Part shown: positions 3,193 through 45,296 of the stretch, one piece after another
Position numbering within the stretch: the stretch's first letter is position 1
How the letters are laid out: every line of letters begins with the position of its first letter
Virus record (IMG/VR): IMGVR_UViG_3300044637_001924
Length of the DNA: 64,000 nucleotides
Reading direction: 5' to 3' (one strand)
DNA from: an uncultured virus (IMG/VR IMGVR_UViG_3300044637_001924)
Lineage: Duplodnaviria > Heunggongvirae > Uroviricota > Caudoviricetes
The notes under the pieces: model-generated
The model's database searches: none
Told to the model about the DNA's origin: nothing
What the model saw: the letters and a program-made list of their open reading frames with translations, nothing else
Position numbers and translations under genes: made by a program

Positions 3193-4125
3193 ATGACAAA
3201 AAAGATATTTTGGATAGACGGTGGTGCTGGTAGAGTAATCACCGCTATTCCTGCATTAATCAAATACGGTCGATTGCATCCCAACAGCGAATGGGCTGTG
3301 TTGGTTGGGGCATGGGATTTCTTATACTGGGGTATTCCCGAGCTGCAAGATCGCACCTACAATCTTGATACAAAAGGTGTTTTTGACAACGTAGTCAAGA
3401 ATGCTGATCAAATAGTAACCCCGGAGCCTTATCGTATCCCAGCATATTTTAGGCAAGAGATAAGTTTGGCTGAAGCTTTTGACAGGGAAATCAACCAAAC
3501 TACAGATCACAGTGATTTATTGCCACCACGCTTGGCATTCAATCAACAAGAAACTCTAGTAGCCAAGAATACCATAGCTGATCTCAAAAGTGTGAGCAAA
3601 AAGAACAAAACTATTGTATTTCAACCCTTTGGCCGTGGTGCCAAACTGGATCGTGCCACAGTGATTGACGAAGAAAGCAGAAGCTTAAGCTCAAACGACT
3701 ATTTGAGCCTGAGCCGGCGTCTTAATCAAAAATACAACATGATCTTTTTTGGCGAGCCTGACTTTCAATTGAAAGACGACAACTGGAGTGCCAAATACAC
3801 TGCTGATTTAAGAGTTTGGTCAGCTCTAGTTGCCAACTCTGACTATTTTGTAGGATGTGACAGTGTAGGCCAGCATATTGCTAGAGCCTCTGGAGTACCA
3901 GGCACAGTAATTATTGGGAGTACGTTTCCCAAGAACACCAGCTATCCAGATTACTTTCAAATAATTGAAAAGCCTGCTGCTAGGAAATATAGTCCTATTC
4001 GTATTGCTGGTCTGGACGTAAATCTCAGCAATAGGCTGAATGAAGGCACAATGAAATTCTCAACCAAAGAACTAGACGACATCTATCAAAAGATTGTTGC
4101 AGATATTGAAAGGAAAACACGCTGA
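3193..4125 (+). CDS. GT9-like (heptosyltransferase-fold) glycosyltransferase
   Basis: GGAGRVITAIPAL start; DYFVGCDSVGQHIARA C-terminal GT9-type motif; ATG at 3193 after GAGG; paralogue at 57650-58579. Confidence 0.7.
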   Translation: MTKKIFWIDGGAGRVITAIPALIKYGRLHPNSEWAVLVGAWDFLYWGIPELQDRTYNLDTKGVFDNVVKNADQIVTPEPYRIPAYFRQEISLAEAFDREINQTTDHSDLLPPRLAFNQQETLVAKNTIADLKSVSKKNKTIVFQPFGRGAKLDRATVIDEESRSLSSNDYLSLSRRLNQKYNMIFFGEPDFQLKDDNWSAKYTADLRVWSALVANSDYFVGCDSVGQHIARASGVPGTVIIGSTFPKNTSYPDYFQIIEKPAARKYSPIRIAGLDVNLSNRLNEGTMKFSTKELDDIYQKIVADIERKTR

Positions 4126-13996: not shown

Positions 13997-14878
13997 TTAG
14001 GCGTAACTTCCAAATAAATGCAATTGCATATTAAAGACGAATCCGTTCTGGACACAATAACGAGCAGCGTGTTCGTGATTGGCTTGAGCAGTTTGCATAT
14101 TGATAAGCCCTGGCGTCCAAAAACTCACAACTTCATCCACAATACTGCGTTCTTCAAGACTAATTTGATTTTTCTCAGCTCGAATTTGCTTGCTTTTCTG
14201 CGGTTCATGGTTGTAAATGTTCATGGGACTTACAAACACCTTCTTACCAGTTTGGTCCCGCCAGTTGTGTGCCCAGTCAGGGACATTATTGTAAGGAGTA
14301 TCAGAATCTGCACTCATTACAAATTTCAAACAGTCTGCTCTTCCTAGCATTTCTGCTCGTGGTTCAAGATATTTCACCGGACGGCCATTTTTTTCACTGC
14401 ACTTGGGACTTACTACTAAGGTAGTTTCCTGAGGAATGTTCTGGACGATAGTGCCGTTGCTTTCAATTTGCGTTCGGGCAAACTGGGTATTCATATGCTC
14501 TAAAAATGGAACAATGTTTTTTTGTAGCATGGGCTCACCGCCAGTAAGCACGAGAACCATGTTGCGTTTCTTTACAGGATCACTTCCTGGACCCCCATAC
14601 ACAACATCAGCCCAAAGAGGGGTATTACCATTGAAGCTGTCAGAGATGCTCTTTGCGATTTTGGAGTCAATCTCTTGGATTGTCATCCAATCACCATCAT
14701 CAAAGAAAGTATCACAAAATGAACATTGGAGATTGCACTTGGCTAGCCTAACAAACACAGCAGGCTCGCCTCGATATGGGCCTTCTCCCTGAAATGTGGT
14801 GAAAATACTAGTTACAAAAAGTTCATCTTCTGCATTTTTGAAGTAACGTTCACCAACCAGCTCATTGCGTCCAAACAT
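13997..14878 (-). CDS. queE: 7-carboxy-7-deazaguanine synthase (radical SAM)
   Basis: IFTTFQGEGP..G.PAVFVRLAKCNLQCSFCDT (CxxxCxxC), TGGEP, IESNG, VSPK, QLH. Confidence 0.9.
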   Translation of the reverse strand: MFGRNELVGERYFKNAEDELFVTSIFTTFQGEGPYRGEPAVFVRLAKCNLQCSFCDTFFDDGDWMTIQEIDSKIAKSISDSFNGNTPLWADVVYGGPGSDPVKKRNMVLVLTGGEPMLQKNIVPFLEHMNTQFARTQIESNGTIVQNIPQETTLVVSPKCSEKNGRPVKYLEPRAEMLGRADCLKFVMSADSDTPYNNVPDWAHNWRDQTGKKVFVSPMNIYNHEPQKSKQIRAEKNQISLEERSIVDEVVSFWTPGLINMQTAQANHEHAARYCVQNGFVFNMQLHLFGSYA

Positions 14879-14940: not shown

Positions 14941-15525
14941 TTAAAGCTGCCAAACTAGTTGATAGCCGTCGTATACAAGCGGCACACAAATGTTTTGAAA
15001 GAATTCTTCCACATACTTGCCTTTGCCTATCCGAGAAGAAGAGTCACCAAAATTATCGTCCACAGCAATCATTGTGCCTGGACCCAAACAACTCCAAATT
15101 GCAGTCAATTCTTTCATATGATGAAAACTACTGGGATGAGGATTGTCTGGGTAAAAATCAAAACTGTCGAGATAGAGTAAGTTTATCTGACGGTTTTCTG
15201 CCTGCAACTTTTGACTTAAATTTCGTAACCAAACAACACTGTCTTGACAAAAAATTTGTGTGTTTGAGCACACTTGTGAGCGAGAAAAATTCACATGAGA
15301 CTCATCCAAATCAACTGTCAATAGTTGCCCAGAAAAAGTTTCCACATACTTGTCAAAAATTATTGTACTGAAACCATCACCGTGGAATCCATGTTGTAGG
15401 CTGCGACTGCATCCAGTTTCAACAATCAACGGATTGGCAGTTTGTTTTAGATGATTTATCATTATTTCAAAGCTGGCTTGGCGCTTACCTGTTTGGGCCA
15501 GCATTTGTTCAAGGCTCATGTCCAT
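14941..15525 (-). CDS. Class I SAM-dependent methyltransferase-like protein
   Basis: IVETG, TVD, DSV..L, LLYLDS, IAVDD motifs. Confidence 0.7.
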   Translation of the reverse strand: MDMSLEQMLAQTGKRQASFEIMINHLKQTANPLIVETGCSRSLQHGFHGDGFSTIIFDKYVETFSGQLLTVDLDESHVNFSRSQVCSNTQIFCQDSVVWLRNLSQKLQAENRQINLLYLDSFDFYPDNPHPSSFHHMKELTAIWSCLGPGTMIAVDDNFGDSSSRIGKGKYVEEFFQNICVPLVYDGYQLVWQL

Positions 15526-15541
15526 TTTTATTTCTCCCTTG

Positions 15542-16414
15542 TTATGTTCTGTAAGTGTGTTGGGTATCAAAAGGATAGATATCACTTGTTTTGACACCTA
15601 ACCCAGGTGCAACATGTTGCGAGAATTTTTGTGCATTGGATAAGACAAAATTGGGAAAATAGTTGTTCAATTCCACTGTTTCAAAAAACTGTCCTGGGGT
15701 GTGATGGCTACCTTTTGTGGCTATAAATCTGTCAATGTCAAAGTTTTCGACTATTTCAGGTATATTCTCATTTGTATGAACAAAACTGTTGATCTTTTGA
15801 ATACAATGCTGATTGTTTCCCAATGAGCTCCAATGCCAACCTCCATGCGCAACAAAGGCTGTGCCATCAGGCAACCCAACCCATGGAAACGTAAATGTTC
15901 GTTCTGTTTGAGGGTCAGTAAAGTCTTGAGACTTTGAGACAATAATACTTGGACCAGCTTGCCAATCTACCCCATTTGTGGTTTTGATTCTCATGTAATT
16001 TAATTTATACAAATACTGTGGAGCAAACAAAATCCAACGAGTGTGCTGACTATCATGTTTTATGCTAGAAACTACTGATGCTCGAGGAATTTCATCGGCA
16101 TCAGTTACAATGATCAAATCATCAGGGCTTTTGTCTCCTAGTCCTCGAGCAAGACATCTGCGTTGATGATTTTCTCTGAACCAAAGGTTGTCTTCACCGC
16201 CAGGCATGTCATCAACAACAATGTGACGAATTTTCTGGGCATATTTTTCAAAGCGTTGTTTGTTTAGATCAAAATACAAGGGCTTGAACATGCCAGTATG
16301 TGTAACATTTGATTCAGCTAACACAAAATAGTCAACAACGTCCCATAGCTCTTCAAGGCGTATTTCAAGTAGATCTAACTCATTGAAAAAAGTAAAACAA
16401 TCATATACTTTCAA
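15542..16414 (-). CDS. GT17-like beta-1,4-GlcNAc transferase
   Basis: YDCFTFFNELDLLEIRL, VLAESN.TH.G..KP, ENHQR, DADEIP, GWHWS. Confidence 0.85.
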   Translation of the reverse strand: MKVYDCFTFFNELDLLEIRLEELWDVVDYFVLAESNVTHTGMFKPLYFDLNKQRFEKYAQKIRHIVVDDMPGGEDNLWFRENHQRRCLARGLGDKSPDDLIIVTDADEIPRASVVSSIKHDSQHTRWILFAPQYLYKLNYMRIKTTNGVDWQAGPSIIVSKSQDFTDPQTERTFTFPWVGLPDGTAFVAHGGWHWSSLGNNQHCIQKINSFVHTNENIPEIVENFDIDRFIATKGSHHTPGQFFETVELNNYFPNFVLSNAQKFSQHVAPGLGVKTSDIYPFDTQHTYRT

Positions 16415-16432
16415 TTTTTTGTCCTTTGGCAG

Positions 16433-17140
16433 TTACAACAGTATTTTGTTTTGCCAACTGTTGCACAAATTTATTTTTTCTGATTCACTTACACCAGGAA
16501 AATGCACAGCCCAATCGCCTGGCTGCCATGAGCCATCTGTCAACAGTTTGTCCAAGGCAGGTTTTGGTATATAAGGATATAGGTTGTAATCATAGCTGTT
16601 TAACATTCGTTGAGGCACAACTTGAATCGTTTTGTCCCAAGGATGTGGAATTTTCAAAGACTCGCCTTGCGGGTAACTTGGGTGGTGTGTGCCGGGGAAC
16701 CCAAATAACTGATTCAATGCCCACTGTTCTGAGTCCCAATGTTGCAAAGCTTCTTTTTCCACTTTCAATAACTCGTGCAGTAATGACCGACACTGACTTG
16801 AGTTACGAAATAAAATGCTGCCTGTATTGAGGCCATTTACATCAGTTGAGATGAGTAAATCATGTGTGTCACTAGTTTTTTCTTGTATGGTTGTTTTGAA
16901 GTTGGTGATCAAAACATCAGTATCAGTATACCAAAGCCAACTGAGATGTGGGTGTGTGTCAAAAAGTTCCAACACCGCATGGATTCTGTCAAAGTGACTG
17001 GTCCAAGTGGTTTTTTCAAACAGATGATAATTGTGTCTCTGAGCATACAGCTTTTTGTTTTTGTCCAAGGTTATTTTTGAAAGTTCTGAGAAATTGTTGT
17101 TGTAAACAACCAGCAGTCCATACATGTGTTGCCCGATCAA
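16433..17140 (-). CDS. GT34-like (MNN10/GMA12) glycosyltransferase
   Basis: NKKLYAQRHNY, WLWYTDTDVLITN, GLNTGS, EQWAL, WQPGDWAVHFPG. Confidence 0.8.
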   Translation of the reverse strand: MIGQHMYGLLVVYNNNFSELSKITLDKNKKLYAQRHNYHLFEKTTWTSHFDRIHAVLELFDTHPHLSWLWYTDTDVLITNFKTTIQEKTSDTHDLLISTDVNGLNTGSILFRNSSQCRSLLHELLKVEKEALQHWDSEQWALNQLFGFPGTHHPSYPQGESLKIPHPWDKTIQVVPQRMLNSYDYNLYPYIPKPALDKLLTDGSWQPGDWAVHFPGVSESEKINLCNSWQNKILL

Positions 17141-17934
17141 AAATAATTTCCATTTATGCGGTCAAACCAACAATCGCCCCCGCCTCCTAGAGGAGTTTGT
17201 GTTTTTGTATCCCGATTGCCTTCGCACCAATAGCTTTTGCCCAAACCTATCGCTATAGCCAATGGCGCACTTTGATTGCCAATGAACATTTCACAACCTT
17301 GAATTACCTGTGCCAAATGCAACAGATCTAGGGTAGGAAAATAGTCAATAGTCTCCTTGAACTCTGTTTGCCACTCTTGATGTTCTCTAGGTGTGCCCAC
17401 AAACACAGCCTGCTTGCACAGACCTTGTTTGATAAAATCCATCCATTTTTGTGTAGCACTGTTGTCTCTATGTCTAGGTGTTCGATTGATTACTATGGGT
17501 CGATTGGGGATAAGGATTGGGCTAACCTGTGTGAGCCAAGGCTCTCTCAACAACTGGTGCTGCAATTGAACGTCAGTCATATCCCATCCCAGTCCCAAGG
17601 CATAGGCTTGAGTTTGATTACCTTGCCAACCAGAAGGTAATATGAATTTCCAATTTTCAGCTGCTAAATCATAATCAATGTGCTGGTTGGTATAGATTTG
17701 CACTTCATGCAAATAACTTTGGTGTAACAACAGGCTTTCAATGTTTTGAAAATCTTTTTCACTTATTCTGCCTGTGAAGGGCTGATTGTACCAACCCAAC
17801 ACATTTCGGCAAAACTCATCAAGGTATCCCAATTTGAGGTAAATGTTGCCACCCCCAAGGATTTTTACTGCACAAAGACTGTATATTATATCACCAGCAG
17901 TGGCATAGGTTATGAAGTTTTTCAGCACAATCAA
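17137..17934 (-). CDS. GT9-like glycosyltransferase
   Basis: GDIIYSL; LAQVIQGCEMFIGNQSAPLAIAIGLGK. Confidence 0.65.
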   Translation of the reverse strand: MIVLKNFITYATAGDIIYSLCAVKILGGGNIYLKLGYLDEFCRNVLGWYNQPFTGRISEKDFQNIESLLLHQSYLHEVQIYTNQHIDYDLAAENWKFILPSGWQGNQTQAYALGLGWDMTDVQLQHQLLREPWLTQVSPILIPNRPIVINRTPRHRDNSATQKWMDFIKQGLCKQAVFVGTPREHQEWQTEFKETIDYFPTLDLLHLAQVIQGCEMFIGNQSAPLAIAIGLGKSYWCEGNRDTKTQTPLGGGGDCWFDRINGNYF

Positions 17935-17979
17935 CCCAAGAAAACTATTTCAAAACTATACCAGAGTCGTGCAAGATTG

Positions 17980-18561
17980 TCACTTTTTCCTAAGAATGAT
18001 TTCGATAGCTGATTCACCAATGGGTGTCAGTGTTTGATCTTGATTTTGAATATGGTATCGATAACTGGCATCCAAAAGCTCAAGCTTCAAGATAGTGAGT
18101 TCGGGAAAGTTGGCTAGGAAACTTGTGCAGCTTACAGAAACAGGACTCCAGCTGAGATTTTTTTGAATTGTCCAAGTAGTTTTGTGATCCCAGTTGAAAC
18201 GACTGGGAAAAACCCCTTGTTCATAAAGGTCTTCATCTGGAACCAATAGGACCATATGCCCACCTGGTTGCAAAATTCTGCTCCAGTTTCTCATAGCTTC
18301 TGTAGGGTCTCTCATGTGCTCAAGACAATGGCTGCTGAGTAACCAATCAAAACTGTTGTCAGCTACACCTGCCATCAACTGCGCATCACCATCAGGTAGG
18401 TCCCAATTTCTCACCTGCTGCATTCCTGGAAAAAAATCTTTGTAATTGCTGACTGGGTCATCCCCAGCACCAATGTCAATGCCATTGCCTACGAAATATC
18501 GAGTAATAAATCTGCTGTCAGAGAGCCTTCTCATAACAGCTTTACTGGTTTCATGTGTCAT
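17980..18561 (-). CDS. SAM-dependent methyltransferase (type 11)
   Basis: GIDIGAG, FDWLLSSHCLEH, RILQPGG..VLLVPD. Confidence 0.85.
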   Translation of the reverse strand: MTHETSKAVMRRLSDSRFITRYFVGNGIDIGAGDDPVSNYKDFFPGMQQVRNWDLPDGDAQLMAGVADNSFDWLLSSHCLEHMRDPTEAMRNWSRILQPGGHMVLLVPDEDLYEQGVFPSRFNWDHKTTWTIQKNLSWSPVSVSCTSFLANFPELTILKLELLDASYRYHIQNQDQTLTPIGESAIEIILRKK

Positions 18562-19006
18562 TTTGATTCTCCAAACTGTTGTTTAACGCCTGCCAAGTGA
18601 GTTTCCCTTCTCTATGCTCAACTTCTGTTTCCAATGGCCTAATCAGGTCCTCATGGGAAACTTGTTTAGCTATCCTCAAACACTTTTTAACCCCTTGTAG
18701 ATAACTTCTTGCTATAGCTACTTCCCCAGCGGCTTTTATGTCAATGCAGTTCTGCAAACTGTCTACCAACTTAGATGCTGCCTTAGTGGGATGGTTTTGA
18801 TGCCAAGTGACCTCACCTTGTATGCTGATGCTTAAGATGGTTTCGCCATAGTCATTGTCAACTCGCAATGCTTGAGTAGGCCTGGCATTACTGCTACCAA
18901 ATGTCAGTAACGTACCAACCGTGTAACCTGATCCAAGGTTATTCACTGTGATACCGGTTACACTGCCTTGACAGACACTGGTTACCTTAAAAATATTAGA
19001 GGCCAT
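18551..19006 (-). CDS. Hypothetical protein
   Basis: Contains one VTGITVNNLGSGYT unit reminiscent of virion beta-repeats. Confidence 0.55.
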   Translation of the reverse strand: MASNIFKVTSVCQGSVTGITVNNLGSGYTVGTLLTFGSSNARPTQALRVDNDYGETILSISIQGEVTWHQNHPTKAASKLVDSLQNCIDIKAAGEVAIARSYLQGVKKCLRIAKQVSHEDLIRPLETEVEHREGKLTWQALNNSLENQNDT

Positions 19007-19290
19007 CAGGAACCTCTGGGCGATTGCAAAAACTCTATAAAACGAGCTTGATCTTCCACAGCCCAAAAACTGAACCGAAAACTCTCATAGCTGATTTTTT
19101 CTGTGGACCAAATATTGGTGCAATTTTCCACACACCAATTGAACAACAGTTCATAACTGGGTTCATAACGTTGGTTGGATGGCTTGTAAAGCTCTTCGAA
19201 GCTAAGGAGTAATTGATTGTGAATGAGTATTGCCCGAACACTCTCGGGCAACACATTCCACTCTCTATATCTACTGTTGATGATTTTCAT
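19006..19290 (-). CDS. Small hypothetical protein similar to the 44.6-45.9 kb paralogue family
   Basis: WC.E.C..W....F.F...ED.ARF pattern. Confidence 0.55.
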   Translation of the reverse strand: MKIINSRYREWNVLPESVRAILIHNQLLLSFEELYKPSNQRYEPSYELLFNWCVENCTNIWSTEKISYESFRFSFWAVEDQARFIEFLQSPRGS

Positions 19291-19329
19291 ATTTTGACCT
19301 AAAAATTCTCTGTTACAATAACTGTTGTA

Positions 19330-20010
19330 TTAGAGAGAGGTCAAGTCAACCATCTTCATAAATTCAGCACGAGCACTGGGATCCTGTTTGAACGCACCAC
19401 CCAGCTTGCTGGTAACTGTGCTGCTGCAATCATCTTCAACGCCACGATGACTTACGCAATAGTGCTTGCCGTGAATGACGACAGCAATGCTATCGGTTTC
19501 CAGGATATATTCCATTGCATGAAAGATCTGCTCAGTCAAACGCTCTTGAATTTGTGGTCGGCGGCTAAAGTATTCGACAATTCGATTGATCTTGCTTAGG
19601 CCCAATACCTTTTCTTTGGGAATATAAGCCACAGTTGCTACACCATCAATCACAATGAAGTGATGTTCGCAGGCACTTTTGACAGTGACATTTCGTTCAC
19701 ACACCATTTCATCATAGCCCATTTTGTTGGCAACAGTGGTGCACTTGGGGAAAGCTTCCCAATCAAGACCCCAAAAAAGTTCCTGGATAAACATGCGAGC
19801 CACTCGTGTCGGCGTTTCAGCCAAACTATCATCTGATAGATTCAAGCCCATTGTTTCCATGATGTCCTTGAACTTGCGTTCAATAATATCAATTTTGTCT
19901 GTGCGGCTTAGGGAATTTTCCACTGTTGGGGTTTCAACCCCTTTGGAAACTAGGTATTCATGTACTTTGCGACCCAGTTCAGGATCACATTTTGTGCGAT
20001 TATAGCTCAT
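19330..20010 (-). CDS. folE: GTP cyclohydrolase I
   Basis: ETPTRVA, SACEHHF, VLGLSKINRIV, RPQIQERLT, HYCVSHRGV. Confidence 0.95.
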   Translation of the reverse strand: MSYNRTKCDPELGRKVHEYLVSKGVETPTVENSLSRTDKIDIIERKFKDIMETMGLNLSDDSLAETPTRVARMFIQELFWGLDWEAFPKCTTVANKMGYDEMVCERNVTVKSACEHHFIVIDGVATVAYIPKEKVLGLSKINRIVEYFSRRPQIQERLTEQIFHAMEYILETDSIAVVIHGKHYCVSHRGVEDDCSSTVTSKLGGAFKQDPSARAEFMKMVDLTSL

Positions 20011-20085
20011 ATCTTTCCTTTCAAAGCATCTGTCGTTTATGCACAACGGGTGTTTCCACCAATTTGCTACCGTAATGTAGCAGAC

Positions 20086-20111
20086 TATTTATAACACAAA
20101 AATTGTGTTAT
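20086..20111 (-). promoter_or_regulatory. Late promoter TATAAATA (20086-20093) overlapped by hairpin ataacacaa/ttgtgttat
   Basis: Exact consensus between dpdA stop and folE start. Confidence 0.7.
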
Positions 20112-20113
20112 TG

Positions 20114-21772
20114 CTATTCAAATTCATCAAAATCCATGACAATGTTGTTATCAGCGTTCATTCCTGTGATTTTGGCTAACATAGCAGAATGTTTTTCAAT
20201 CAGTTGCATGGGTTTTTCACTAGTGAAGATCTCTTCACAAAGTCCCCCAGCAAATTCAATCAAGTCTTCGCTGATGTGATGTTTCCTCTCCTCCATTGGC
20301 AGGTCTTGCATTGCACATGCATGTTGAATAGCTTCAATATGAAGCTCAACATTGTGGCTCATGCCCAGCACATAGCTGAGACCATCCATGCTGCTGGGCC
20401 ATTTGACCTGATACTTTTCATGGTCCTTAAACTCTTTCTTGCCCCAATCAAACATGCCGCTGCCGTGGTCAGTGTGCTCATGCATAAGATAATGTTTGTA
20501 TTCATCACTGTAGCGAAACTTCTCGCCATGAACGCCTTCCAAGCTTTGTTGATACAACAAGCTTTCAAACTCTTTTTGTGAAAAAGCTTGTTTTTTGAAA
20601 TTGAGATCTTCATAACCTTTGACACAGATATCACCAATGGTGATCCGCTTGCCAATGCTGCTTTCGCGAACAGCATGTTTTTGATTGTGGCGATTGATCC
20701 AGTCTTGAAACAGTTCTTGACTGCCCTTAAGCTCTTTTTTGTCTGGCAACGAGTTGTTTTTATATGCAATGCTTTGCGGACTTACTTCCCAACTGTAGTA
20801 GATGTTGCCTTTTGCTACGTTCACAAAAGGACTTGCTGCATCGTAACTGAGAGTTGTACGCTCGTTGATGTGCTTTCTCCACACTCGTTGAAGTGTAGTA
20901 AGAGCGCAGCCTGCCTTGATTTTGCCATTGCCTAGATAATGGATCCAATCTCTGTTATCCAAATACTTGCCATCTCGCATGATAATGATCCGACGGAGAT
21001 TTATAGCAAAGTTGCTGGCTTGCACATTACTGAATGCCCAGGTTTCAAAAGGAAGATCTTTCACAACGTCCCACCAAATGTCACCTTCTTCTTGATTGCG
21101 CCCCTGCAACACATTCAAAAATTGTGTACTACCTTCCCGACGATTTTTGATGAAAAAGTTGTGATTCTCCATACTGCTTTCAAGACAGTCTCTAAAGTTC
21201 TTAACCCCAGGATGTAGGTTCTCACCTGTGATGGGATCGTTACCAAACTTCAACAAGCTGCCTGTGGGGACATCTAATACCATACTGTAGTCACAAGTGT
21301 GTTCAAGCCAGCGTAGGATTTTCATCCTAATGGCGTCTTTGTCCTTCATCCAGTCTTGATCAGTTTGCTTTTCTTTTTTCTGCCAAGGCCATTTGAGAAC
21401 GCCAGTAGCAATCTGATAACCACCACTGTCGCCCACAATTACTGAGGCGTTTTTGTCTCGCTTTTGCACCATAGCTTCTTGGATATCACTTTGAGCAGGA
21501 TCCCAATAACTGTGACCGCTGCTGTAGAGTGCAGTGGGATAATAAAATAAGTTGGTATTGGTTTGCAGAAAGTCCAAATCCTGCAATCCACCCGGCAGCC
21601 CCTTGACTGTGCGAGCGTTGGGCTGACTTACTAGTCGCACATAGATCGCTGAGATTGAAGGAAGAAAAATAGCATAGTCCTTGTTGGTGGTCCACATGTC
21701 TCTACCCACCACAGGTTGCATGTTTTGATCAATTTTTTTCAAATGTGGGTTGGGGCTGGAAAGTTTTGTCAT
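20114..21772 (-). CDS. dpdA: TGT-fold deazaguanine DNA transglycosylase (DpdA-like)
   Basis: GDSGGYQI, MVLDVP, NVLQG, IHYLG, SYDAASP TGT-type motifs; adjacent to folE. Confidence 0.8.
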   Translation of the reverse strand: MTKLSSPNPHLKKIDQNMQPVVGRDMWTTNKDYAIFLPSISAIYVRLVSQPNARTVKGLPGGLQDLDFLQTNTNLFYYPTALYSSGHSYWDPAQSDIQEAMVQKRDKNASVIVGDSGGYQIATGVLKWPWQKKEKQTDQDWMKDKDAIRMKILRWLEHTCDYSMVLDVPTGSLLKFGNDPITGENLHPGVKNFRDCLESSMENHNFFIKNRREGSTQFLNVLQGRNQEEGDIWWDVVKDLPFETWAFSNVQASNFAINLRRIIIMRDGKYLDNRDWIHYLGNGKIKAGCALTTLQRVWRKHINERTTLSYDAASPFVNVAKGNIYYSWEVSPQSIAYKNNSLPDKKELKGSQELFQDWINRHNQKHAVRESSIGKRITIGDICVKGYEDLNFKKQAFSQKEFESLLYQQSLEGVHGEKFRYSDEYKHYLMHEHTDHGSGMFDWGKKEFKDHEKYQVKWPSSMDGLSYVLGMSHNVELHIEAIQHACAMQDLPMEERKHHISEDLIEFAGGLCEEIFTSEKPMQLIEKHSAMLAKITGMNADNNIVMDFDEFE

Positions 21773-21781
21773 AGATATATC

Positions 21782-22870
21782 TTACTTTACTGTGGTTGAT
21801 CTAGCAACTGTGTTGCTGATGTTTTCAAACATTACGCTAGCTGAAAGATATTTTTGTAAGAGCACTTTCTTTTGCTTTTCCAACTGCCTACTGAACTTTT
21901 TGGGGTGATTCAATCTGTACTGAATAAATTCAGTCAATTGTTGTTTGTGTGTTTGATAACTTTCCCAATCTTGAGTCCAGTTGCTGGGATAGAGAAAATC
22001 AGGATGATACATTTCGCTGTAGCTGCACCGATTGGGCAGCACTGGGATCACATCTGCCAGCACAGCTTCCATTACACTGATGCCCAAGTTTTCATGCAAG
22101 CTACAGGAAAAAATTACTTGGCAGTCAGCCAGCTTTTCGTAATAACTGCTTTTGTTGAGATTCATTTTTTGTGTAATACACCAAGGCTGTTTCATGCTGT
22201 TGGAGAGATCTTCAGCAATTTCAGGCTGCTTATCTGGATTGTAACGGTGTGGCCAAATAACGCCCTGTTTCCTCTCTCGGCTGTCCTGCATAATATCTTG
22301 CATTTGTTTGACAATAGCAGAGTGTGGTTGCCCACTAGTTTTGGCTTTGTGATGATATTCATTGCTGATGCCCAGATTGCTCAAAAACATTTTTTTATGA
22401 AAATCTGTTGCATACCAATTCTCATCGCAGGCATGAAACAGTGCCTGCTCAGCTAGCCAGGGCCACGGTTTGCTCATTTTATATCCAAGGATATCAGTGG
22501 GATCGTATGCTCCAGCATGCCAGTAACCTTGTATGTTCCAATTATATCCCATGAGATCATTCATATACTTGACTTGCAGAATCACTGGATTCCAAGCGTC
22601 AGTGAACAAATGCACATCATTTGGAGTTGTTTCTCCAGCATCATGTTTGTTGAGAAACTCAACCAGTTGAGTGCTTTTCCATCTGTTGGTGTCGCTGAAA
22701 TTCAAAAATGCACCAGATGTGGTGCTTGTAGTGTTTTGGACCCCATCAAGTTGGATTACTTTTGCTGCATTTCCAACTATTTCTTGGAGCCGCAACGGAA
22801 TCTCGTGATACCATTGTTGGGTGTAGCGATTATCCAATGGCTCGATAGGCCATACAAATACATTGGGCAT
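21782..22870 (-). CDS. GT4-like glycosyltransferase immediately upstream of dpdA
   Basis: WPHRYNPDKQP, SLHENLGISVMEA (E-x7-E), PNRCSYSEM; 9-nt gap to dpdA. Confidence 0.8.
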   Translation of the reverse strand: MPNVFVWPIEPLDNRYTQQWYHEIPLRLQEIVGNAAKVIQLDGVQNTTSTTSGAFLNFSDTNRWKSTQLVEFLNKHDAGETTPNDVHLFTDAWNPVILQVKYMNDLMGYNWNIQGYWHAGAYDPTDILGYKMSKPWPWLAEQALFHACDENWYATDFHKKMFLSNLGISNEYHHKAKTSGQPHSAIVKQMQDIMQDSRERKQGVIWPHRYNPDKQPEIAEDLSNSMKQPWCITQKMNLNKSSYYEKLADCQVIFSCSLHENLGISVMEAVLADVIPVLPNRCSYSEMYHPDFLYPSNWTQDWESYQTHKQQLTEFIQYRLNHPKKFSRQLEKQKKVLLQKYLSASVMFENISNTVARSTTVK

Positions 22871-22963
22871 TTTTGATCCTTCAAATATTCTCTAATAGAG
22901 ATAGTATATAAACCACAGGAGTTTTTGACAATTATAGCATTGAAAATTATAAGGTTATCGCCA

Positions 22964-23025
22964 ATACAAAGTATTTGAGCCAGCACAATCCTATCTCGAT
23001 CTCCTGGCGCTCAAATACTTTGTAT
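22964..23025. repeat. Perfect 17-bp inverted repeat (long hairpin)
   Basis: atacaaagtatttgagc 22964-22980 / gctcaaatactttgtat 23009-23025. Confidence 0.9.
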
Positions 23026-23040
23026 AGCAATCCTTGGTGG

Positions 23041-23412
23041 TTATGCAGCGTCCCAGGCTAGCACAGCCCCATTCTCACCATCTTCACTAACGTCAATGCT
23101 CACTGCACGACCTGGATAGCGAGCAGAGATTTGGGCGTAGAGGTCTTCGGCGATCATCTCGCAGCTTTTGAAATCCAGTTGGATCACACCATCACCATAG
23201 AGACTTTCCAGCCAACGCTTGAAAATGATAAATTCAATGTCTCGGTCTAGGTGATTGACGCCAATTCCAACCTTGAAATGAAACATGTGCCTATGCGGAT
23301 ATTGAAGAAAATTTACATCTGCAAGGGAGGGGTCAGTTCCAGCTGCTGGATACTTGTGAATCCCTTCACGTTGAAAAGTCACGTAGATTTTTCTTGTAGT
23401 TGGTTCTGTCAT
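23041..23412 (-). CDS. dpdL: T-fold QueD paralogue, DpdL-like (putative CDG decarboxylase)
   Basis: LQYPHRHMF fits LxxxHRHxF in place of QueD CxxxHGH; SCEMIA and VSEDGENG retain the T-fold Glu positions. Confidence 0.7.
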   Translation of the reverse strand: MTEPTTRKIYVTFQREGIHKYPAAGTDPSLADVNFLQYPHRHMFHFKVGIGVNHLDRDIEFIIFKRWLESLYGDGVIQLDFKSCEMIAEDLYAQISARYPGRAVSIDVSEDGENGAVLAWDAA

Positions 23413-23468
23413 TATTTCTCTCTTTGTTATGTGTTCAGATTATATGCTGTAGTCAGCTAAATCAACCG

Positions 23469-23696
23469 CTACACCAATTGATTTACTGTGCAATATTTGA
23501 GGCCACATTGTGCACTACAAAACTCAATACGGGTGGTCCCCATGTCACGGAAATATTCTGGCCAAATGTCACTTTGAGTATGGACTACTGCCCCATCATT
23601 GTCACAAACGTATTTCCTGTAAGGCTCACAGCTTGTGCCGCATGCAACACATTTGAGAGTGGGAAAATTTGATGGAATGGTTTTTTTATGTTTCAT
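23469..23696 (-). CDS. Small Zn-finger-like protein
   Basis: CVAC ... FCSAQC. Confidence 0.55.
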   Translation of the reverse strand: MKHKKTIPSNFPTLKCVACGTSCEPYRKYVCDNDGAVVHTQSDIWPEYFRDMGTTRIEFCSAQCGLKYCTVNQLV

Positions 23697-24685
23697 TTGG
23701 GTACCAGCGTATCAACAAAGATATCAGTTGTTTTTTCCCAACTCCATCGCTTGCTGCCTTCAAAAACAGTTTTTCGACTCAATGTCAAACATTGCGAGAT
23801 AGCTGTCTGAATATCCTCATTTAGCACACCAGTCACCCCATCATCTACAACATCTATTGGACCCTGCACAGGAAATGCTGCAACAGGAGTACCAACACTC
23901 ATGCTTTCAATCATAACCAACCCAAACGTGTCACTTTTGCTGGTGAAAACAAAGCAGTCAGCATTTTGGAACTGCTGTACCAGTTGCTTACCGCTCAATT
24001 GCCCAGTAAATGTCACCCAGGGGTATTTGTTCTGTAACCGCTTGAGATCAGGGCCATCACCAACACACACTAGATTGTATTTTTCTGCTGATAGGCTACA
24101 AAACACCTCTAAATTTTTCTCAGCACTGATTCGACCAACACTCAACAATGTGGGCTTGGTGTCACACTTGCGGTCATTAAATTGAAACAGTTGGGTGTTG
24201 ACTCCCCGTGACCATGTGATGGCTTGAGACAGGCCAAGCGACACCATCTCTCTTTGCATAGTAGGAGTGTTGACCAAAGTTGCTGCACTATTTTGATGAA
24301 ACCATTTGAGATACCTCATGGTTTTGAGGGCCGGCACACCAAATTTTTCCTTGAGATAGTGATCCCATCTTGTGTGAAAGCTAGTTGTGTAGCGCCAATT
24401 TTTGTTTTGAAAAAATTGCCTAGCAGTTAAGCCCAGCACACCTTCTGTACAAATGTGCAAGTGTGTGGGTTCATACGCCTCTATTCTTTTTTTCAAATTC
24501 CAAAAATTCAATGGTATGCGAGCACCTGGATATACCAATGCAGGCATAGACATCATTTGATCAGGAGTGATGTGAATGAGATTCTGTATGCCTCGAGAAA
24601 ACATTTGTTTTTTCACTGCATTCATTGTAGTTACAACACCATTCACTTGGTCTTGGCAGTTGTCATCAACAATCACAAGTCTCAT
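23693..24685 (-). CDS. GT4 glycosyltransferase, Agt/glycolipid synthase-like
   Basis: QVNGVVTT, HICTEG.LG, TTSFHTRW, WSRGV, VGRISAEKNL, DTFGLVMIES..GTPVAAFPVQGP. Confidence 0.85.
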   Translation of the reverse strand: MRLVIVDDNCQDQVNGVVTTMNAVKKQMFSRGIQNLIHITPDQMMSMPALVYPGARIPLNFWNLKKRIEAYEPTHLHICTEGVLGLTARQFFQNKNWRYTTSFHTRWDHYLKEKFGVPALKTMRYLKWFHQNSAATLVNTPTMQREMVSLGLSQAITWSRGVNTQLFQFNDRKCDTKPTLLSVGRISAEKNLEVFCSLSAEKYNLVCVGDGPDLKRLQNKYPWVTFTGQLSGKQLVQQFQNADCFVFTSKSDTFGLVMIESMSVGTPVAAFPVQGPIDVVDDGVTGVLNEDIQTAISQCLTLSRKTVFEGSKRWSWEKTTDIFVDTLVPK

Positions 24686-25470
24686 TCAAGGCTCCATGTG
24701 TTTTTCGTCATCATACTTTTTGTTTCAGTGTCGTAAACCAGTAGCTCTATTGAGCCATCAAAGTTTTCAACCAAAGCTGACACAGTTTCACAAAAATCAC
24801 CACAATTCATATACACAAACCCATCCTCAAACGTTTTCAACGATGGAGAATGAATATGGCCACAAATTACTCCATGAAATGCTTCGTCCCGAGCATATTG
24901 TACTACATGTTGCTCGTATTTGGTGATAAATGCAACAGCTTGTTTCGTGTTTGTTTTAAGGTATGAACTTAGACTCCAATAATCTTTTCCAAAAAACCGG
25001 CGCATATGATTCAAATGTGTGTTCAACCACAGTAAAAAACTGTGTGCTTTGTCGCCCATCAAGCTAAGCCATTTGTGATATCGAATTACACCGTCAAACA
25101 AATCACCGTGTGTTACCAAAAATCTCTGCCCATGAACAGAGTGATGTTCAAAGGCATTGCCCAGCTCAATGTTGCCAAAAGTGTGTATGTCTGGAATCCA
25201 TGCTCGAAGGTACTCATCATGATTACCTAAAACATATCTCACCTGTGTGCCTCTCTTGGCCGCAGTGAGAATTCTTCGAACCACATTGCTATGTGTTTGT
25301 GGCCAGAATTTGCTGCTTTTCAATTTCCACAAATCAAATATGTCACCAACGAGGTATAGATTTTGGCAGGAGTTGTGTTTCAAAAACTCCACAAGTAGCT
25401 CAGCTTGGCATGCACGACTACCAAGATGCGTATCGCTTATGAAGATGCTACGATATTTGCTGTTTGGCAT
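24682..25470 (-). CDS. LpxH/PlcP-like metallophosphoesterase
   Basis: YRSIFISDTHLG, LVGDIFD, GNHDE, HGDLFD, CGHIH, YMNCGDFCE. Confidence 0.85.
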   Translation of the reverse strand: MPNSKYRSIFISDTHLGSRACQAELLVEFLKHNSCQNLYLVGDIFDLWKLKSSKFWPQTHSNVVRRILTAAKRGTQVRYVLGNHDEYLRAWIPDIHTFGNIELGNAFEHHSVHGQRFLVTHGDLFDGVIRYHKWLSLMGDKAHSFLLWLNTHLNHMRRFFGKDYWSLSSYLKTNTKQAVAFITKYEQHVVQYARDEAFHGVICGHIHSPSLKTFEDGFVYMNCGDFCETVSALVENFDGSIELLVYDTETKSMMTKNTWSLE

Positions 25471-33587: not shown

Positions 33588-36478
33588 ACTTTTATAAGGT
33601 TTCCTTTGAGATCTGTGATAGTAATCCTATCAATACTTACAGGTGTTACCTGACAATTGGGCAGCAAATTATCTCTATCTGAAGGCTGCATGGTATCTAC
33701 TGGCATATATGCTCGTGCAGTTTTATCCTCAGGTGTTATTTCCCAACTTAAGATGTATTTGCCAAACCAATCATGCTCACCAACATCAAAAAATATAGCA
33801 ATAACTGGAGTGAAAGGATATTCCACAGTGCTATATCGGCCAAATTCTCTAGCACCAGTCTCATCATATTTTGGTTTCAGTCCGCCTGACTTTATTATAC
33901 TTGTAAGCTTATTGGTCATATGGTATACTCGCTGGCCCACAATACTTTTGCCTGGATATAAATTATATTGGGAATATTGCATGCCAGGCTCATACCAAAT
34001 ATTTGCTCCAGGACGCAAACCTTTGTAACTTAAACTTTCGTCCAAGTTAGTGAATGATGCAAGCTTGTCCTGCTTGACAATTGCAAAGCTTTTGTTAGTG
34101 TGCAACACTGTGCTATCAGCAGGTGCCAACTGTTTTGCCAGCCGGAGATAGAGCTTGTTGCGGCTGCGCTCATCCCCACTGAAGTTGATGTAGTCCCAGC
34201 TGTGGGTCTGGAAAAACCATTTGAGTTTTCGTATAATCAAATCAAATAATTGGGCACTTTTTTGGTCAAACATACCTGTTACAGAGATGCTGTGATCTAC
34301 AGAGAAGGACACTTCATATCCAACCCAGTTTTCTGGCACTTGCTTTTGCAAGATAGTTTGAAGCTCATAAGAAGCGTCTTTTACGACTGCTATTTGCACT
34401 TCACTGCCAGCAAATTCAAATTCAGTGTAGTGGGTTGAACCGCCCTTTATTGATTGCCAATCTCCAGGAAGTGGCTTGCCTTTAAAAACTTCATCCAGCT
34501 CTTGAGATTTTGCTGCCAACAAATGGTTTTTGATCAGCAGGAACCAATCTCCAAATTGCATTGGCTCTGAATCAAGTCCTGGAGATATCTGACTCAATAT
34601 TTTAGTATATACTCTTTGTCTACTGTCCCCAGCACCTGCGAAGACCAAATAGTCCCATTCTATATTTTGTAGTAGTCCTATGATTTTTCCTACAACAATT
34701 GAAATTACATTCGCTGCACCTGTGCCTAGTAAGCCTGTTGGATCAGTTTCGCCATCTACCCTGAATATTATTTCTCTGCCAACCAGGTTTGCTCCAGCCT
34801 CTATGTTTTTCTTCATCAACACATAGGCACCAGATTGGGCCCAATCCCGACTCACACTTATTGTGATCTTATATCCTTGAAGATCAAACTCTGTTTCAAA
34901 CATTTCTGCGTCGCCGCTTCCATATTTTTTCCAATCGCCTGGAATATGCTCACCACTTATGATTTCATCAACTCTAGTTGCTCCGCCGCAATGTTTGTTT
35001 TGAAACCAGTTGGCTTGGCGTTTGTCTAGAGTTGTAGCACCCTGGCGTGTTTTGAGTTTTTGTGTTTTGTCACATGTGACACCTCCGCCATACAGTCTGG
35101 TGATTTTGGATTTGAGAGTGCCAGGCGCACCTTTGCGCTCTGTTAACAATGTATCAACAGGCATTTTCTCCCAATGCAGCCATGCTGATGGTGCAACTTG
35201 GTTGTGCACACCAGGATCGTATTCTACAACCTTTCCTCGGTATATCTCCCTTATTTGATTCGCTGGTATAGAGCCTTTGACTCCCACTTCATGTGATCCT
35301 GTGCCTTGCACATGCACAATTTTTGATTCATCAGGTTTGGGCACTGCAATTACCCATGCTGGATTGTCCCAGTTGGCTTTTTGATTCCATGGTGCAAAAC
35401 TATGAGCATAAGTTTCAGCTGACCTGGGTTCAGTTGAAAAATAGGTTAAGCCCTGTTGCCCAGCCAAGTTATACTCGCCTTTGCTTTGTATCACTCCTGT
35501 TTTTTTGATATTTTGAAATTCATGATTACTCATGCCCCTATACACTAGGTTGGGATTTGGAGTTATGTTTAAATTGGCACGCAAATGAGATTTGGGAACA
35601 AGCTGATCTTTTACGGCGATGACTTTGCCATCATCGTCTTCAAGTGGGTCACTTTTGATGTCAAAATAATTGGGATCATATTCGCCCAATCTACCTCTCC
35701 AGGTTACACGGTATGTGTCTCTTTTGTTTTCATTTTCTTCTGAGAGACTTTTTTGAGTCTTTAACAGCAGTTCAAAAAACGGGCCAGATACACTAGTGTT
35801 TGCTCTCTGTGGTACAAGACGCAGGTTGAGTGCTTCAATCCATTCAGGTTTGATGTGCCTAGCACGCAATCCACCGACAAAAAACAAATGAGTTTCAACA
35901 GGTGCATCGCCTTCAGTTTCTAGGACCGCATACATTCTGTTGCGGCCTTCGTGCCCAATTACTCTTGCGGATTTATTATAACGACCTTTTTCCCATTCTA
36001 TTGGTATGTCTAAGACCAGCCAAGGACTGGCCATTCCCTGCCCTTGATCTAGTTGCTGTTTGATATAATCCACACTCCCAGCATGTTCTCTTGACAAAGG
36101 GCTAGCCAATTTCAAAAATACACTGGGCTTCATCGCGACTCTCAAGCCAAGATAATCCACATTCTTATTGTCAGGCACTTCCCCAATGCCACTCACATTG
36201 TCGATTTTTACTTCATTTAGCAGGGCAAACAGCTCTATCAGAAGAGCTTCTTGAGCAGGCTTTTTCTCAAGTTTGCTCAATTTCTTGTAATAGTTAAGAT
36301 CCTCACCCAAGTGATCCAAGGCTATTTCTCGCGCCACACTCCGCAACCGGGTGTGTTCCATCTCCACTTTGATGCCCTGTGCCAGCTGTTTCTCCACAGA
36401 GTCTGTTGACACTTTGTATTTTTTAGCCAGCTCAGCTACGCTACTGGTAGGCTTGTTCAATAGGTCATTCAGTTTCAT
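33584..36478 (-). CDS. Modular polyprotein B: DUF5661-like, ParB-like, ART-like, small basic module, two SRxxxY domains, second ART-like domain
   Basis: GIKVEMEH..IALDHL.E...YY; GHEGRNR; YRG..YFST..HEV; VYHMT..I..GGL.P; linkers LLNE, LSEE, LLTE, RVDE, ELDE, NLDE. Confidence 0.8.
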   Translation of the reverse strand: MKLNDLLNKPTSSVAELAKKYKVSTDSVEKQLAQGIKVEMEHTRLRSVAREIALDHLGEDLNYYKKLSKLEKKPAQEALLIELFALLNEVKIDNVSGIGEVPDNKNVDYLGLRVAMKPSVFLKLASPLSREHAGSVDYIKQQLDQGQGMASPWLVLDIPIEWEKGRYNKSARVIGHEGRNRMYAVLETEGDAPVETHLFFVGGLRARHIKPEWIEALNLRLVPQRANTSVSGPFFELLLKTQKSLSEENENKRDTYRVTWRGRLGEYDPNYFDIKSDPLEDDDGKVIAVKDQLVPKSHLRANLNITPNPNLVYRGMSNHEFQNIKKTGVIQSKGEYNLAGQQGLTYFSTEPRSAETYAHSFAPWNQKANWDNPAWVIAVPKPDESKIVHVQGTGSHEVGVKGSIPANQIREIYRGKVVEYDPGVHNQVAPSAWLHWEKMPVDTLLTERKGAPGTLKSKITRLYGGGVTCDKTQKLKTRQGATTLDKRQANWFQNKHCGGATRVDEIISGEHIPGDWKKYGSGDAEMFETEFDLQGYKITISVSRDWAQSGAYVLMKKNIEAGANLVGREIIFRVDGETDPTGLLGTGAANVISIVVGKIIGLLQNIEWDYLVFAGAGDSRQRVYTKILSQISPGLDSEPMQFGDWFLLIKNHLLAAKSQELDEVFKGKPLPGDWQSIKGGSTHYTEFEFAGSEVQIAVVKDASYELQTILQKQVPENWVGYEVSFSVDHSISVTGMFDQKSAQLFDLIIRKLKWFFQTHSWDYINFSGDERSRNKLYLRLAKQLAPADSTVLHTNKSFAIVKQDKLASFTNLDESLSYKGLRPGANIWYEPGMQYSQYNLYPGKSIVGQRVYHMTNKLTSIIKSGGLKPKYDETGAREFGRYSTVEYPFTPVIAIFFDVGEHDWFGKYILSWEITPEDKTARAYMPVDTMQPSDRDNLLPNCQVTPVSIDRITITDLKGNLIKV

Positions 36479-40818: not shown

Positions 40819-40914
40819 AGTATATTTATTGTCTGGACAGTGAGCACAATACAAAGGCAGTAAACATGAGAATTGGATTGCAACCCTCCAGAAATTTGTT
40901 GCATAATCAAAATT

Positions 40915-41646: not shown

Positions 41647-41679
41647 ATAACACAAACGTTTCAAGATCTGGGAAACCAA

Positions 41680-42521: not shown

Positions 42522-42540
42522 GTACCAGTGGCCATTATAC

Positions 42541-43128: not shown

Positions 43129-43150
43129 TACTTTTTCCTTATAATATAAT

Positions 43151-43531: not shown

Positions 43532-43571
43532 CTCATATGTGCTCCTTGGTATAAAAGATGGTTTAAGTGGT

Positions 43572-43579
43572 TATTTATA
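43572..43579 (-). promoter_or_regulatory. T4-type late promoter TATAAATA
   Basis: Exact consensus overlapping the uvsE stop. Confidence 0.7.
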
Positions 43580-44600: not shown

Positions 44601-44654
44601 CAGAGTCTCCTGTGTTACACACTTTTTTAACATAGTTTGCTGTTGCGTCAAAAC

Positions 44655-45295: not shown

Positions 45296-45296
45296 G

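Follow-up and report, generated by a model that had tools for sequence, protein, structure and literature searches.

Does a glycosyltransferase (GT) belong to the machinery by which some phages place 7-deazaguanine in their DNA, and what would it glycosylate? This question is raised by a locus in an uncultured virus of the class Caudoviricetes (IMGVR_UViG_3300044637_001924), from which a stretch of 64,000 nucleotides (hereafter the window; bases 1631–65630 of an IMG/VR viral record of 180.7 kb with an estimated completeness of 44%) was analyzed. The sequencing runs holding this stretch (20 rows) are labelled as lake-water metagenome. On the minus strand of the window, a dpdL-like gene is followed in the direction of transcription by a GT gene, a 552-aa gene of the tRNA-guanine transglycosylase (TGT) fold and folE, with intergenic gaps of 170, 9 and 67 nt, respectively, and a queE-like gene on the same strand begins 4451 nt past folE (Table 1). 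All of the coordinates and spacings in an earlier note made from the sequence alone were correct, including the GT gene ending 9 nt before the ATG (21772) of the TGT-fold gene, folE as the next gene and queE 4.5 kb further on. Predicted promoters and terminators at 19000–25000 were not above shuffled sequences (7 vs 12.0 and 7 vs 4.7, respectively) and were uninformative on operon structure. The comparative analysis below strongly supports a link between the GT and the deazaguanine module, and the best explanation of the locus is a phage DpdL/DpdA3-type 7-deazaguanine DNA modification system of which a dedicated GT is an integral, undescribed component.

Conservation of the dpdL–GT linkage

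Viral loci were sampled in three ways, centred on the DpdA-like protein (the best 80 of at least 590), on the GT (80 of 176) and on DpdL (80 of at least 597). Among the 47 DpdA-centred loci with at least 5 kb on both sides, DpdL, the GT and FolE are encoded in 47, 46 and 42, respectively, and in all 58 DpdL–GT pairs of this sampling dpdL is located upstream of the GT gene on the same strand, the median distance between the two being 309 nt. Around the GT, dpdL was identified upstream on the same strand in 72 of 80 loci, DpdA (within 6 kb) in 75 and FolE in 70; four of the eight loci without dpdL have less than 500 nt of upstream sequence. Around DpdL, the GT gene lies downstream in 76 of 80 loci, and in 60 of the 61 loci with at least 2.5 kb of downstream sequence. 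When the 240 loci were pooled and their DpdL proteins clustered at 90% identity, 102 of the 120 clusters could be assessed, and the locus encodes a GT homologue in 101 of them and a DpdA in 96. The coupling of the GT to the deazaguanine module, which the earlier note had proposed from a single locus, is strongly supported by the synteny survey.

The order of dpdL followed by the GT gene persists across lineages in which everything else has been rearranged, including the position and the subfamily of dpdA; the pair is retained with DpdA2 in Acidovorax phage ACP17 and with DpdA3 in phage PA5oct. The other GTs encoded at 14941–18561, together with the methyltransferase genes there, have homologues in none of 80 related loci and were rejected as members of the module, which shows that the conservation is specific to the dpdL-linked GT. 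Hundreds of uncultured large phages have this dpdL–GT module, as do the cultured phages PA5oct, ACP17, Phosso, X1 and BCSR5.

In GenBank, 28 records contain a DpdL-like gene, and 17 of them also contain a member of the GT family. The family was not found in the DpdL-bearing records of phiST and four relatives, RHph_I1_18 and Ahp1; the DpdL-bearing records Bakedbeans, D479 and MA9V-3 lie outside the set that was inspected. Matches to the GT without DpdL are weak (58% of the query, 24% identity) and come from PhiXhv-12, PhiXhv-15, PhiXhv-16, Ep026 and Ep032.

The GT family is essentially, almost wholly viral. Its Atlas clusters are 94–100% viral, and a scan of 185,579 species genomes with the GT alignment, using patterns that were specific to this subfamily and would overlook bacterial islands carrying more distant GTs, returned one locus on a contig of a metagenome-assembled genome.

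The DpdL-like protein

The product of the dpdL-like gene carries the sequence LQYPHRHMF at residues 36–44 (L36-Q-Y-P-H40-R41-H42-M-F44), the LxxxHRHxF motif that the earlier note had seen in a T-fold protein. Among 21 family members, L36, H40, H42 and F44 are invariant and R41 is variable, being M or F in four of them, including those of PA5oct and Ahp1; S83-C84-E85 is also invariant in the family. The protein matches phrog_17812 (E 4e-35), and by tblastn it is 37% identical to CGPG_00067 of phiST (E 8e-11), 54% to the homologue in ACP17, 55% to that in PA5oct and 66% to that in Phosso. No match to the Pfam family PTPS (PF01242) was obtained. In our own profile comparison, hhalign aligned the DpdL profile with that of seven phage QueDs with a probability of 78% (E 1.7e-5) over just 42 C-terminal columns, and because this match is weak, the T-fold assignment rests on the published HHpred analysis of phiST DpdL (99.89%; PMC10516641).

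CGPG_00067 is the prototype of DpdL, a paralogue of PTPS/QueD in which the catalytic cysteine is replaced and LxxxHRHxF stands in place of the QueD signature CxxxHGH, and DpdL is the proposed decarboxylase of 7-carboxy-7-deazaguanine (CDG) (Cui et al., 2023; PMC10516641). The description of DpdL in the earlier note agrees with this publication, in which sheet DS1 also lists the PA5oct and ACP17 homologues as DpdL. When dpdL and dpdA2 of ACP17, the only ACP17 genes named as synthesized in the supplement, were co-expressed in Escherichia coli, no 2′-deoxy-7-deazaguanine (dDG) was obtained, and the authors suggested that other enzymes may be required (PMC10516641). The GT gene of ACP17 is located between these two genes.

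The DpdA3-like protein

For the 552-aa protein and for the GT, sequence searches alone failed, and their identities were resolved only by structure prediction. The 552-aa protein has no sequence match in Pfam, NCBIfam, PHROGs, a phmmer search of the PDB or a PDB search with a profile of 25 sequences, and none of its 605 metagenomic homologues contains a Pfam domain. An AlphaFold2 (AF2) model built on 25 homologues reached a predicted local distance difference test (pLDDT) of 86.7 and a predicted template modelling score (pTM) of 0.82. Its top Foldseek matches are TGTs (E 4e-7), in agreement with the TGT fold proposed in the earlier note. By VIA, the model aligned with ArcTGT (1iq8; Z 19.3, root-mean-square deviation (rmsd) 5.0, 306 residues) and TGT 2ash (Z 19.3, rmsd 5.2, 316 residues), and over the TGT structures compared the rmsd ranged from 5.0 to 5.3 with 306–326 residues aligned.

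The GDSGGYQ sequence of the 552-aa protein (D115) presents the same DSGG[YF]Q motif as TDSGGFQ of E. coli TGT (D89), and MVLDVP (D167) and SYDAASP (D311) resemble IFDECTP (D143) and MFDCVMP (D264) of the E. coli enzyme in order and spacing. Residues 89, 143 and 264 of E. coli TGT are its catalytic and substrate-binding aspartates. D115, D167 and D311 are invariant among the 25 homologues. An hhalign comparison of the family with a single TGT sequence covered 46 columns with a probability of 11%. A canonical TGT was considered and rejected: PF01702 does not match and the CxCxxC motif (CDCYTC in E. coli) is absent from the 552-aa protein, which is accordingly not filed as a canonical TGT.

A homologue of the 552-aa protein is QCG76197 of PA5oct, with 30% identity over 95% of the query (tblastn E 2e-67; BLASTP E 2.6e-76), which stands in the DpdA3 column of sheet DS1 (Cui et al., 2023; PMC10516641). 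BLASTP gave no match to the 259-aa DpdA3 of phiST and no significant match to the 424-aa DpdA2 of ACP17 (E 0.27); a BFVD match to a phiST protein reached only E 9.5e-4. The gene lies beside a DNA polymerase gene, a homologue of which is present in 66 of 80 related loci, and beside a gene for a conserved 252-aa protein (74 of 80). The 552-aa protein is presumed to be a DpdA3-like enzyme acting on DNA.

The dpdL-linked glycosyltransferase

The 362-aa GT gives a sub-threshold match to Pfam Glycos_transf_1, scoring 16.6 bits where 26.4 are needed (E 0.0058), and because this cut-off is missed, we call the protein GT4-like and not a member of CAZy GT4; its distant homologues in X1, BCSR5 and BUCT-ZZ01 pass the cut-off. 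A PDB profile search returned nothing meaningful. The AF2 model (pLDDT 87.4, pTM 0.84) adopts a GT-B fold with two Rossmann domains, so that the GT4 assignment in the earlier note holds at the level of a GT-B, GT4-like fold. By VIA, the closest structures are sucrose-phosphate synthase (6kih; Z 22.4, rmsd 3.9, 325 residues aligned), GlgM (6tvp; Z 21.8) and BshA (6n1x; Z 21.4), and T4 alpha-glucosyltransferase is a weaker match (1y6f; Z 15.5, rmsd 4.9, 307 residues aligned).

The EX7E motif, a mark of GT4, is intact: E260 and E268 (in HENLGISVME) are both invariant in 24 close homologues. In total, 611 homologues of the GT were found. In 10 distant ones, E268 and the basic donor-binding residues of the C-terminal domain, R209 and K214, are invariant and E260 is kept in at least 90%. 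In the N-terminal domain, E10, R15, Y16, T17, Q68, D91, D126 and E141 are invariant across 10 homologues of 22–46% identity, a pattern that suggests one shared, conserved acceptor.

Supply of 7-carboxy-7-deazaguanine

FolE was unambiguously identified by PF01227 (E 2e-60, 203.7 bits) and by NCBIfam NF006824, which it matches with 307.7 bits (E 4e-92; cut-off 202). QueE models take the first five places among the NCBIfam matches of the QueE-like protein (E 2e-21 to 7e-14), but with 52–77 bits they stay far below their cut-offs of 200–300. By tblastn, the protein shares 43% identity with the QueE annotated in ACP17 (E 6.5e-71), and it is 55% identical to the QueE of G001.

The earlier note had found no queC, queF or canonical queD in the window, and this absence extends beyond it. 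No Pfam match to QueC, QueD or TGT exists in the whole 180.7-kb record. Contigs G004, G005, G006 and G009 represent the same phage (100% identical to the window over 13 kb); they are 310, 329, 223 and 141 kb long, with G004–G006 being 54–77% complete and none of the records complete (36–77%, CheckV). On G004, G005 and G006 neither PF01242 (QueD) nor PF06508 (QueC) was found, a closer QueD protein query found nothing on these three and G009, and a search of G004 and G005 with PF14489 yielded no QueF, the sole sub-threshold match being FolE itself. An overlap of the two longest contigs, which their coordinates suggest, would bring the covered part of the window phage to approximately 400 kb. Among ten large records of the window phage and its relatives, a canonical QueD is encoded in seven, including all non-identical relatives, and the three without it are contigs of the window phage itself; QueC above the cut-off was identified in none of the ten.

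DpdL of the window phage is hence accompanied by DpdA, FolE and QueE, with QueC not found and QueD not found in the incomplete records. As judged from these records, the window phage probably has no QueD of its own and relies on that of its host; otherwise, the gene is either in the uncovered part of the genome or replaced by something else.

Comparison with known systems

The set of DpdL, DpdA3, FolE and QueE is of a known kind, and the PA5oct and ACP17 homologues have already been catalogued (PMC10516641). One of the closest known systems is that of Cellulophaga phage phiST (Cui, Hutinet et al., NAR 2023, PMC10516641), the DNA of which contains plain dDG at full replacement. Similar to the window phage, phiST combines FolE and QueE without QueC, a QueD paralogue with LxxxHRHxF (37% identical to that of the window) and a distant TGT-fold DpdA encoded beside replication genes. 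Different from the window phage, it has no GT of the window family, it encodes its own QueD, which the window phage apparently does not, and its 259-aa DpdA3 has no BLASTP match to the 552-aa protein.

In the Pseudomonas jumbo phage PA5oct (Wroclawvirus; cluster EST35_0316–0322), DpdA3 (QCG76197, 30% identical), the GT (QCG76198, 35%) and DpdL (QCG76199, 55%) are encoded by adjacent genes with QueE nearby, and sheet DS1 lists the DpdA3, DpdL, FolE, QueD and QueE of this phage (Cui et al., 2023; PMC10516641). The order is DpdA-GT-DpdL as opposed to DpdL-GT-DpdA in the window, the PA5oct cluster also contains a phosphoribosyltransferase gene and a short SDR-type epimerase fragment, and two PTPS-family genes are located elsewhere. 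PA5oct DNA is resistant to five restriction enzymes, from which a modified guanine was suspected and not identified (PMC12191111).

The cluster of ACP17 has the order QueD-FolE-x-DpdA2-GT-DpdL-QueE. As in PA5oct, the GT gene (ASD50404, 31% identical) is located between dpdA and dpdL, and DpdL and QueE are 54% and 43% identical to those of the window (tblastn). ACP17 differs in its DpdA2 subfamily and in having QueD and a conserved 132-aa gene, both of which were not found in the window phage. In Phosso the GT gene directly follows dpdL, and in X1 and BCSR5 it lies in the same cluster. Cyanophage BUCT-ZZ01 encodes two Pfam-positive GTs, one directly after dpdL and the other beyond an adjoining gene for a 416-aa DpdA2-like protein.

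Beyond the DpdL-bearing phages, two systems offer parallels for the sugar transfer. HuiG of huimycin biosynthesis in Kutzneria albida is a GT encoded beside folE/queD/queE-type genes, but it serves a natural-product pathway acting on free O-methylated preQ0 in an actinomycete, with no insertion into DNA (PMC7439116). PF13439 is assigned to the GTs of the huimycin family in a preprint (bioRxiv 2026.04.15.718813). The alpha- and beta-glucosyltransferases of T4, the obvious analogues in function, are phage GT-B enzymes that decorate a modified DNA base after replication; different from the reaction considered here, they act on a pyrimidine hydroxymethyl group to give glucosyl-hydroxymethylcytosine, and the fold match to the alpha-glucosyltransferase is weaker than those to GT4 enzymes.

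Several clusters contain additional genes. A 132-aa protein encoded beside dpdA (ASD50402 in ACP17, L001 5138–5536; L025 10037–10495) has tblastn homologues in 103 of 252 loci, with none in the window phage genome, and may be another conserved member of the module. The PA5oct cluster (L002 9407–10371) encodes a phosphoribosyltransferase (PF00156, E 2e-11) and a short SDR epimerase-like open reading frame (ORF) (EST35_0320 and EST35_0321). Homologues of this phosphoribosyltransferase are present in 36 loci, and in the BUCT-ZZ01 cluster a xanthine-guanine phosphoribosyltransferase is annotated (compare L172 2450–2911), a hint that some lineages have a branch at the level of nucleotides. Between dpdL and the GT gene, X1 (L169 2843–4455) and BCSR5 (L170 7375–10123) encode a PAPS-reductase-like PP-loop protein and a protein with a weak match to PIG-L-like deacetylases (E 4.7e-5, below the cut-off), a pair common to these two phages only; BCSR5 has an AAA_28 P-loop protein there in addition. 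These genes suggest, by their predicted families, that the product or the sugar might be processed further, and the PIG-L-like match is reminiscent of the BshA/BshB logic, which by analogy would be a lead towards an N-acetylhexosamine donor. In RHph_I1_18 (L168 6420–7244, EVB91_070), dpdL is followed, instead of by a GT gene, by a gene for a 274-aa protein annotated as Appr-1-p processing (macro domain), for which no Pfam match was found.

Proposed pathway and alternatives

In the pathway that we propose, FolE, QueE and a QueD, presumably that of the host, would make CDG, and the path would stop short of preQ0 because QueC is missing. The DpdL-like protein would then convert CDG, according to the published proposal to 7-deazaguanine, and the DpdA3-like TGT-fold enzyme would exchange guanine in the phage DNA for the deazapurine. 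The GT4-like enzyme would use a nucleotide sugar to glycosylate the deazapurine, before or after its insertion, and the virion DNA would carry a glycosylated 7-deazaguanine. The identity of the sugar, the order of the steps and the atom that carries it (N2, C7/C8, O6 or the C7 carboxyl) we can only infer. The earlier note had reasoned that plain 7-deazaguanine offers nothing to glycosylate, a premise that turned out to be too narrow, as HuiG is proposed to attach N-acetylglucosamine at the 2-amino group of a 7-deazapurine base in huimycin biosynthesis (PMC7439116). We give about an even chance to a pathway in which the deazapurine is the acceptor of the GT and a glycosylated 7-deazaguanine in phage DNA the end product. 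The more specific reading, that phages with the dpdL–GT pair replace guanine with glycosylated 7-deazaguanine and that the GT is the enzyme missing from the E. coli experiment in which dpdL and dpdA gave no product, is tentative, falling slightly short of even.

As to the acceptor of the GT, the acidic isoelectric point (pI) of the family, its structural neighbours among GT4 enzymes with small-molecule acceptors and the weaker match to T4 alpha-glucosyltransferase lean towards a free base or precursor, and the position beside a DNA polymerase gene and the analogy with T4 would lean towards DNA.

A number of observations weigh against the proposed pathway. The GT family is acidic (pI 5.4–6.5), and the enzymes nearest to it in structure use small molecules or sugars as acceptors; together with the weaker T4 match, this does not favour DNA as the acceptor. 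If a sugar were added at N2 before insertion, the transglycosylase would have to tolerate it. phiST, the only phage with a DpdL-family protein considered here for which DNA mass spectrometry is published, makes dDG and has no GT, indicating that DpdL does not need the GT. RHph_I1_18, with a DpdL 62% identical to that of the window, has no GT homologue, and neither has Ahp1. The decarboxylation of CDG to 7-deazaguanine by DpdL is only proposed, for the family as a whole. As no QueD is detectable in the window phage, the supply of CDG rests on an assumption. The sampled loci were the best-scoring ones and are therefore biased towards relatives of the window.

One alternative, which we consider unlikely, is that the GT helps to make or deliver the deazapurine through a transient glycoside of CDG or 7-deazaguanine or a glycosyl ester, with the sugar not retained and dDG or its 7-carboxy counterpart (dCDG) as the final base. 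This would account for the absence of dDG when dpdL and dpdA alone were expressed in E. coli, and it fits both the constant position of dpdL upstream of the GT gene on the same strand (58 of 58 pairs, and 72 and 76 of the 80 loci centred on the GT and on DpdL) and the acidic family with its structural neighbours that use small-molecule acceptors. phiST, however, reaches full replacement by dDG without a GT. To our knowledge, there is no precedent for a deazapurine pathway in which a sugar activates an intermediate or acts as a leaving group.

It is also improbable that the target of the GT is unrelated to the deazapurine, whether a different base in DNA, a protein of the virion or of replication, or a glycan of the host, with the linkage reflecting a shared early transcription unit of the replication module. 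The window is rich in glycan-related genes, including those for GT17, GT34, GT2, a second GT4, carbamoyltransferases, a sulfotransferase and a DegT aminotransferase, which implies that the phage glycosylates other targets as well. Nonetheless, the other glycan genes are found in none of the 80 module loci whereas the dpdL-linked GT is conserved, the order of dpdL and the GT gene survives rearrangement of the position and subfamily of dpdA, and the five GenBank records with a GT and no DpdL are weak matches.

Very unlikely is a third possibility, in which a pterin glycoside or some other small glycoside is the joint product of FolE, the DpdL-like T-fold protein and the GT, comparable to the tetrahydrobiopterin glucoside that cyanobacteria make with FolE, PTPS and BGluT, and dpdA is adjacent only through a shared GTP-derived precursor. 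In its favour, the GT model matches pterin glucosyltransferases (5zer, Z 18.4, rmsd 3.6, 287 residues aligned; 9v0l, Foldseek E 1.4e-6) and DpdL is a PTPS/QueD paralogue with a replaced catalytic cysteine and a proposed function. Against it, many other GT4 enzymes outrank the pterin enzymes as matches, 75 of 80 GT-centred loci have a DpdA within 6 kb, the module is situated beside the DNA polymerase gene (66 of 80) and the conserved 252-aa neighbour (74 of 80), and DpdL-bearing phages have QueE and QueD and no QueC. A dedicated GT within a DpdL/DpdA3-type modification system remains the preferred explanation.

Other genes of the window

The features of the locus are listed in Table 1. Five genes between queE and folE (14941–18561, minus strand) encode a methyltransferase-like protein, GT17-like and GT34-like proteins, a 265-aa protein and a methyltransferase. 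L003, the closest relative, has queE and folE nearly side by side, and the five genes give the impression of glycan-related genes that were inserted into the deazaguanine cluster in one particular lineage.

Upstream of dpdL, the stretch at 23469–25470 (minus strand) contains a second GT4 gene, a gene for an LpxH-like phosphoesterase and, directly upstream of dpdL, a 75-aa zinc-finger-like ORF. The second GT4 (330 aa, pI 9.0) matches Glycos_transf_1 (E 5e-23) and Glyco_transf_4 (E 2e-11), and its homologues occur near dpdL in just three of the 80 DpdA-centred loci (L004, L009 and L057). The phosphoesterase matches Metallophos_2 (E 5e-10) and, below the cut-off, the NCBIfam model for UDP-2,3-diacylglucosamine diphosphatase (E 1e-12); it has homologues in two of the 80 loci (L009 and L057), where they accompany the second GT4 next to dpdL. 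L009 is the one DpdA-centred locus with full flanks that is without the main GT.

Table 1. Deazaguanine module and adjoining features in the window (positions are those of the 64,000-nt stretch).
Feature	Coordinates	Strand	Basis
dpdL-like, 123 aa	23041..23412	-	Motif LQYPHRHMF; phrog_17812; tblastn to known DpdLs
GT-B, GT4-like glycosyltransferase, 362 aa	21782..22870	-	AF2 fold; EX7E
DpdA3-like TGT-superfamily protein, 552 aa, presumed DNA guanine transglycosylase	20114..21772	-	AF2 fold; PA5oct homology
folE, GTP cyclohydrolase I	19330..20046	-	PF01227; NCBIfam NF006824
queE-like radical SAM protein (7-carboxy-7-deazaguanine synthase)	13997..14878	-	NCBIfam QueE models below cut-off; tblastn
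Second, canonical GT4 glycosyltransferase, two genes upstream of dpdL; module membership uncertain	23693..24685	-	Glycos_transf_1; Glyco_transf_4
LpxH-like metallophosphoesterase accompanying the second GT4; module membership uncertain	24682..25470	-	Metallophos_2

Further from the module, genes at 43151–49857 (minus strand) encode an AdoMet decarboxylase, UvdE, a glutathionylspermidine-synthase-like protein (E 7e-140), a DUF350 protein and an ATP-dependent DNA ligase. The GC content rises here from approximately 0.43 to 0.52–0.56, and the polyamine-related genes may have been acquired horizontally. A 1242-aa protein (36465–40193, minus strand) contains several GNAT acetyltransferase matches and a cytidine/dCMP deaminase zinc-binding region, and a Sir2-family protein (E 3e-37) and a serine resolvase/invertase (E 3e-37) are encoded at 40873–43182. 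Sugar-tailoring genes at 4125–5822 (plus strand), 51182–53353 (minus strand) and 59573–63987 (minus strand), which encode two carbamoyltransferases, a DegT-type aminotransferase, an epimerase/dehydratase, a GT2, a sulfotransferase and a methyltransferase, are unrelated to the conserved module.

Significance

Phage DNA is known to contain eight 7-deazaguanine derivatives (PMC10516641), none of which bears a sugar. The same paper makes no mention of the GT: no word of its main text begins with "glycosyl", and ASD50404 is not in its supplement. In the literature searched, with most subscription journals outside it, we found no GT in a phage deazaguanine pathway and no glycosylated deazaguanine in DNA.

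A glycosylated deazapurine, if true, would constitute a new class of DNA hypermodification; we know of no sugar-bearing purine in DNA described before. It would join base replacement and sugar shielding, the two main strategies of phages, on a purine, and it would bear on the recognition of phage DNA by restriction enzymes, type IV systems, END nucleases and the newly described deazaguanine-specific glycosylases. The reconstitution of the ACP17 system was tried without the GT gene that lies between the two genes used. The phages concerned include the therapeutic candidate PA5oct, which, like ACP17, is in culture.

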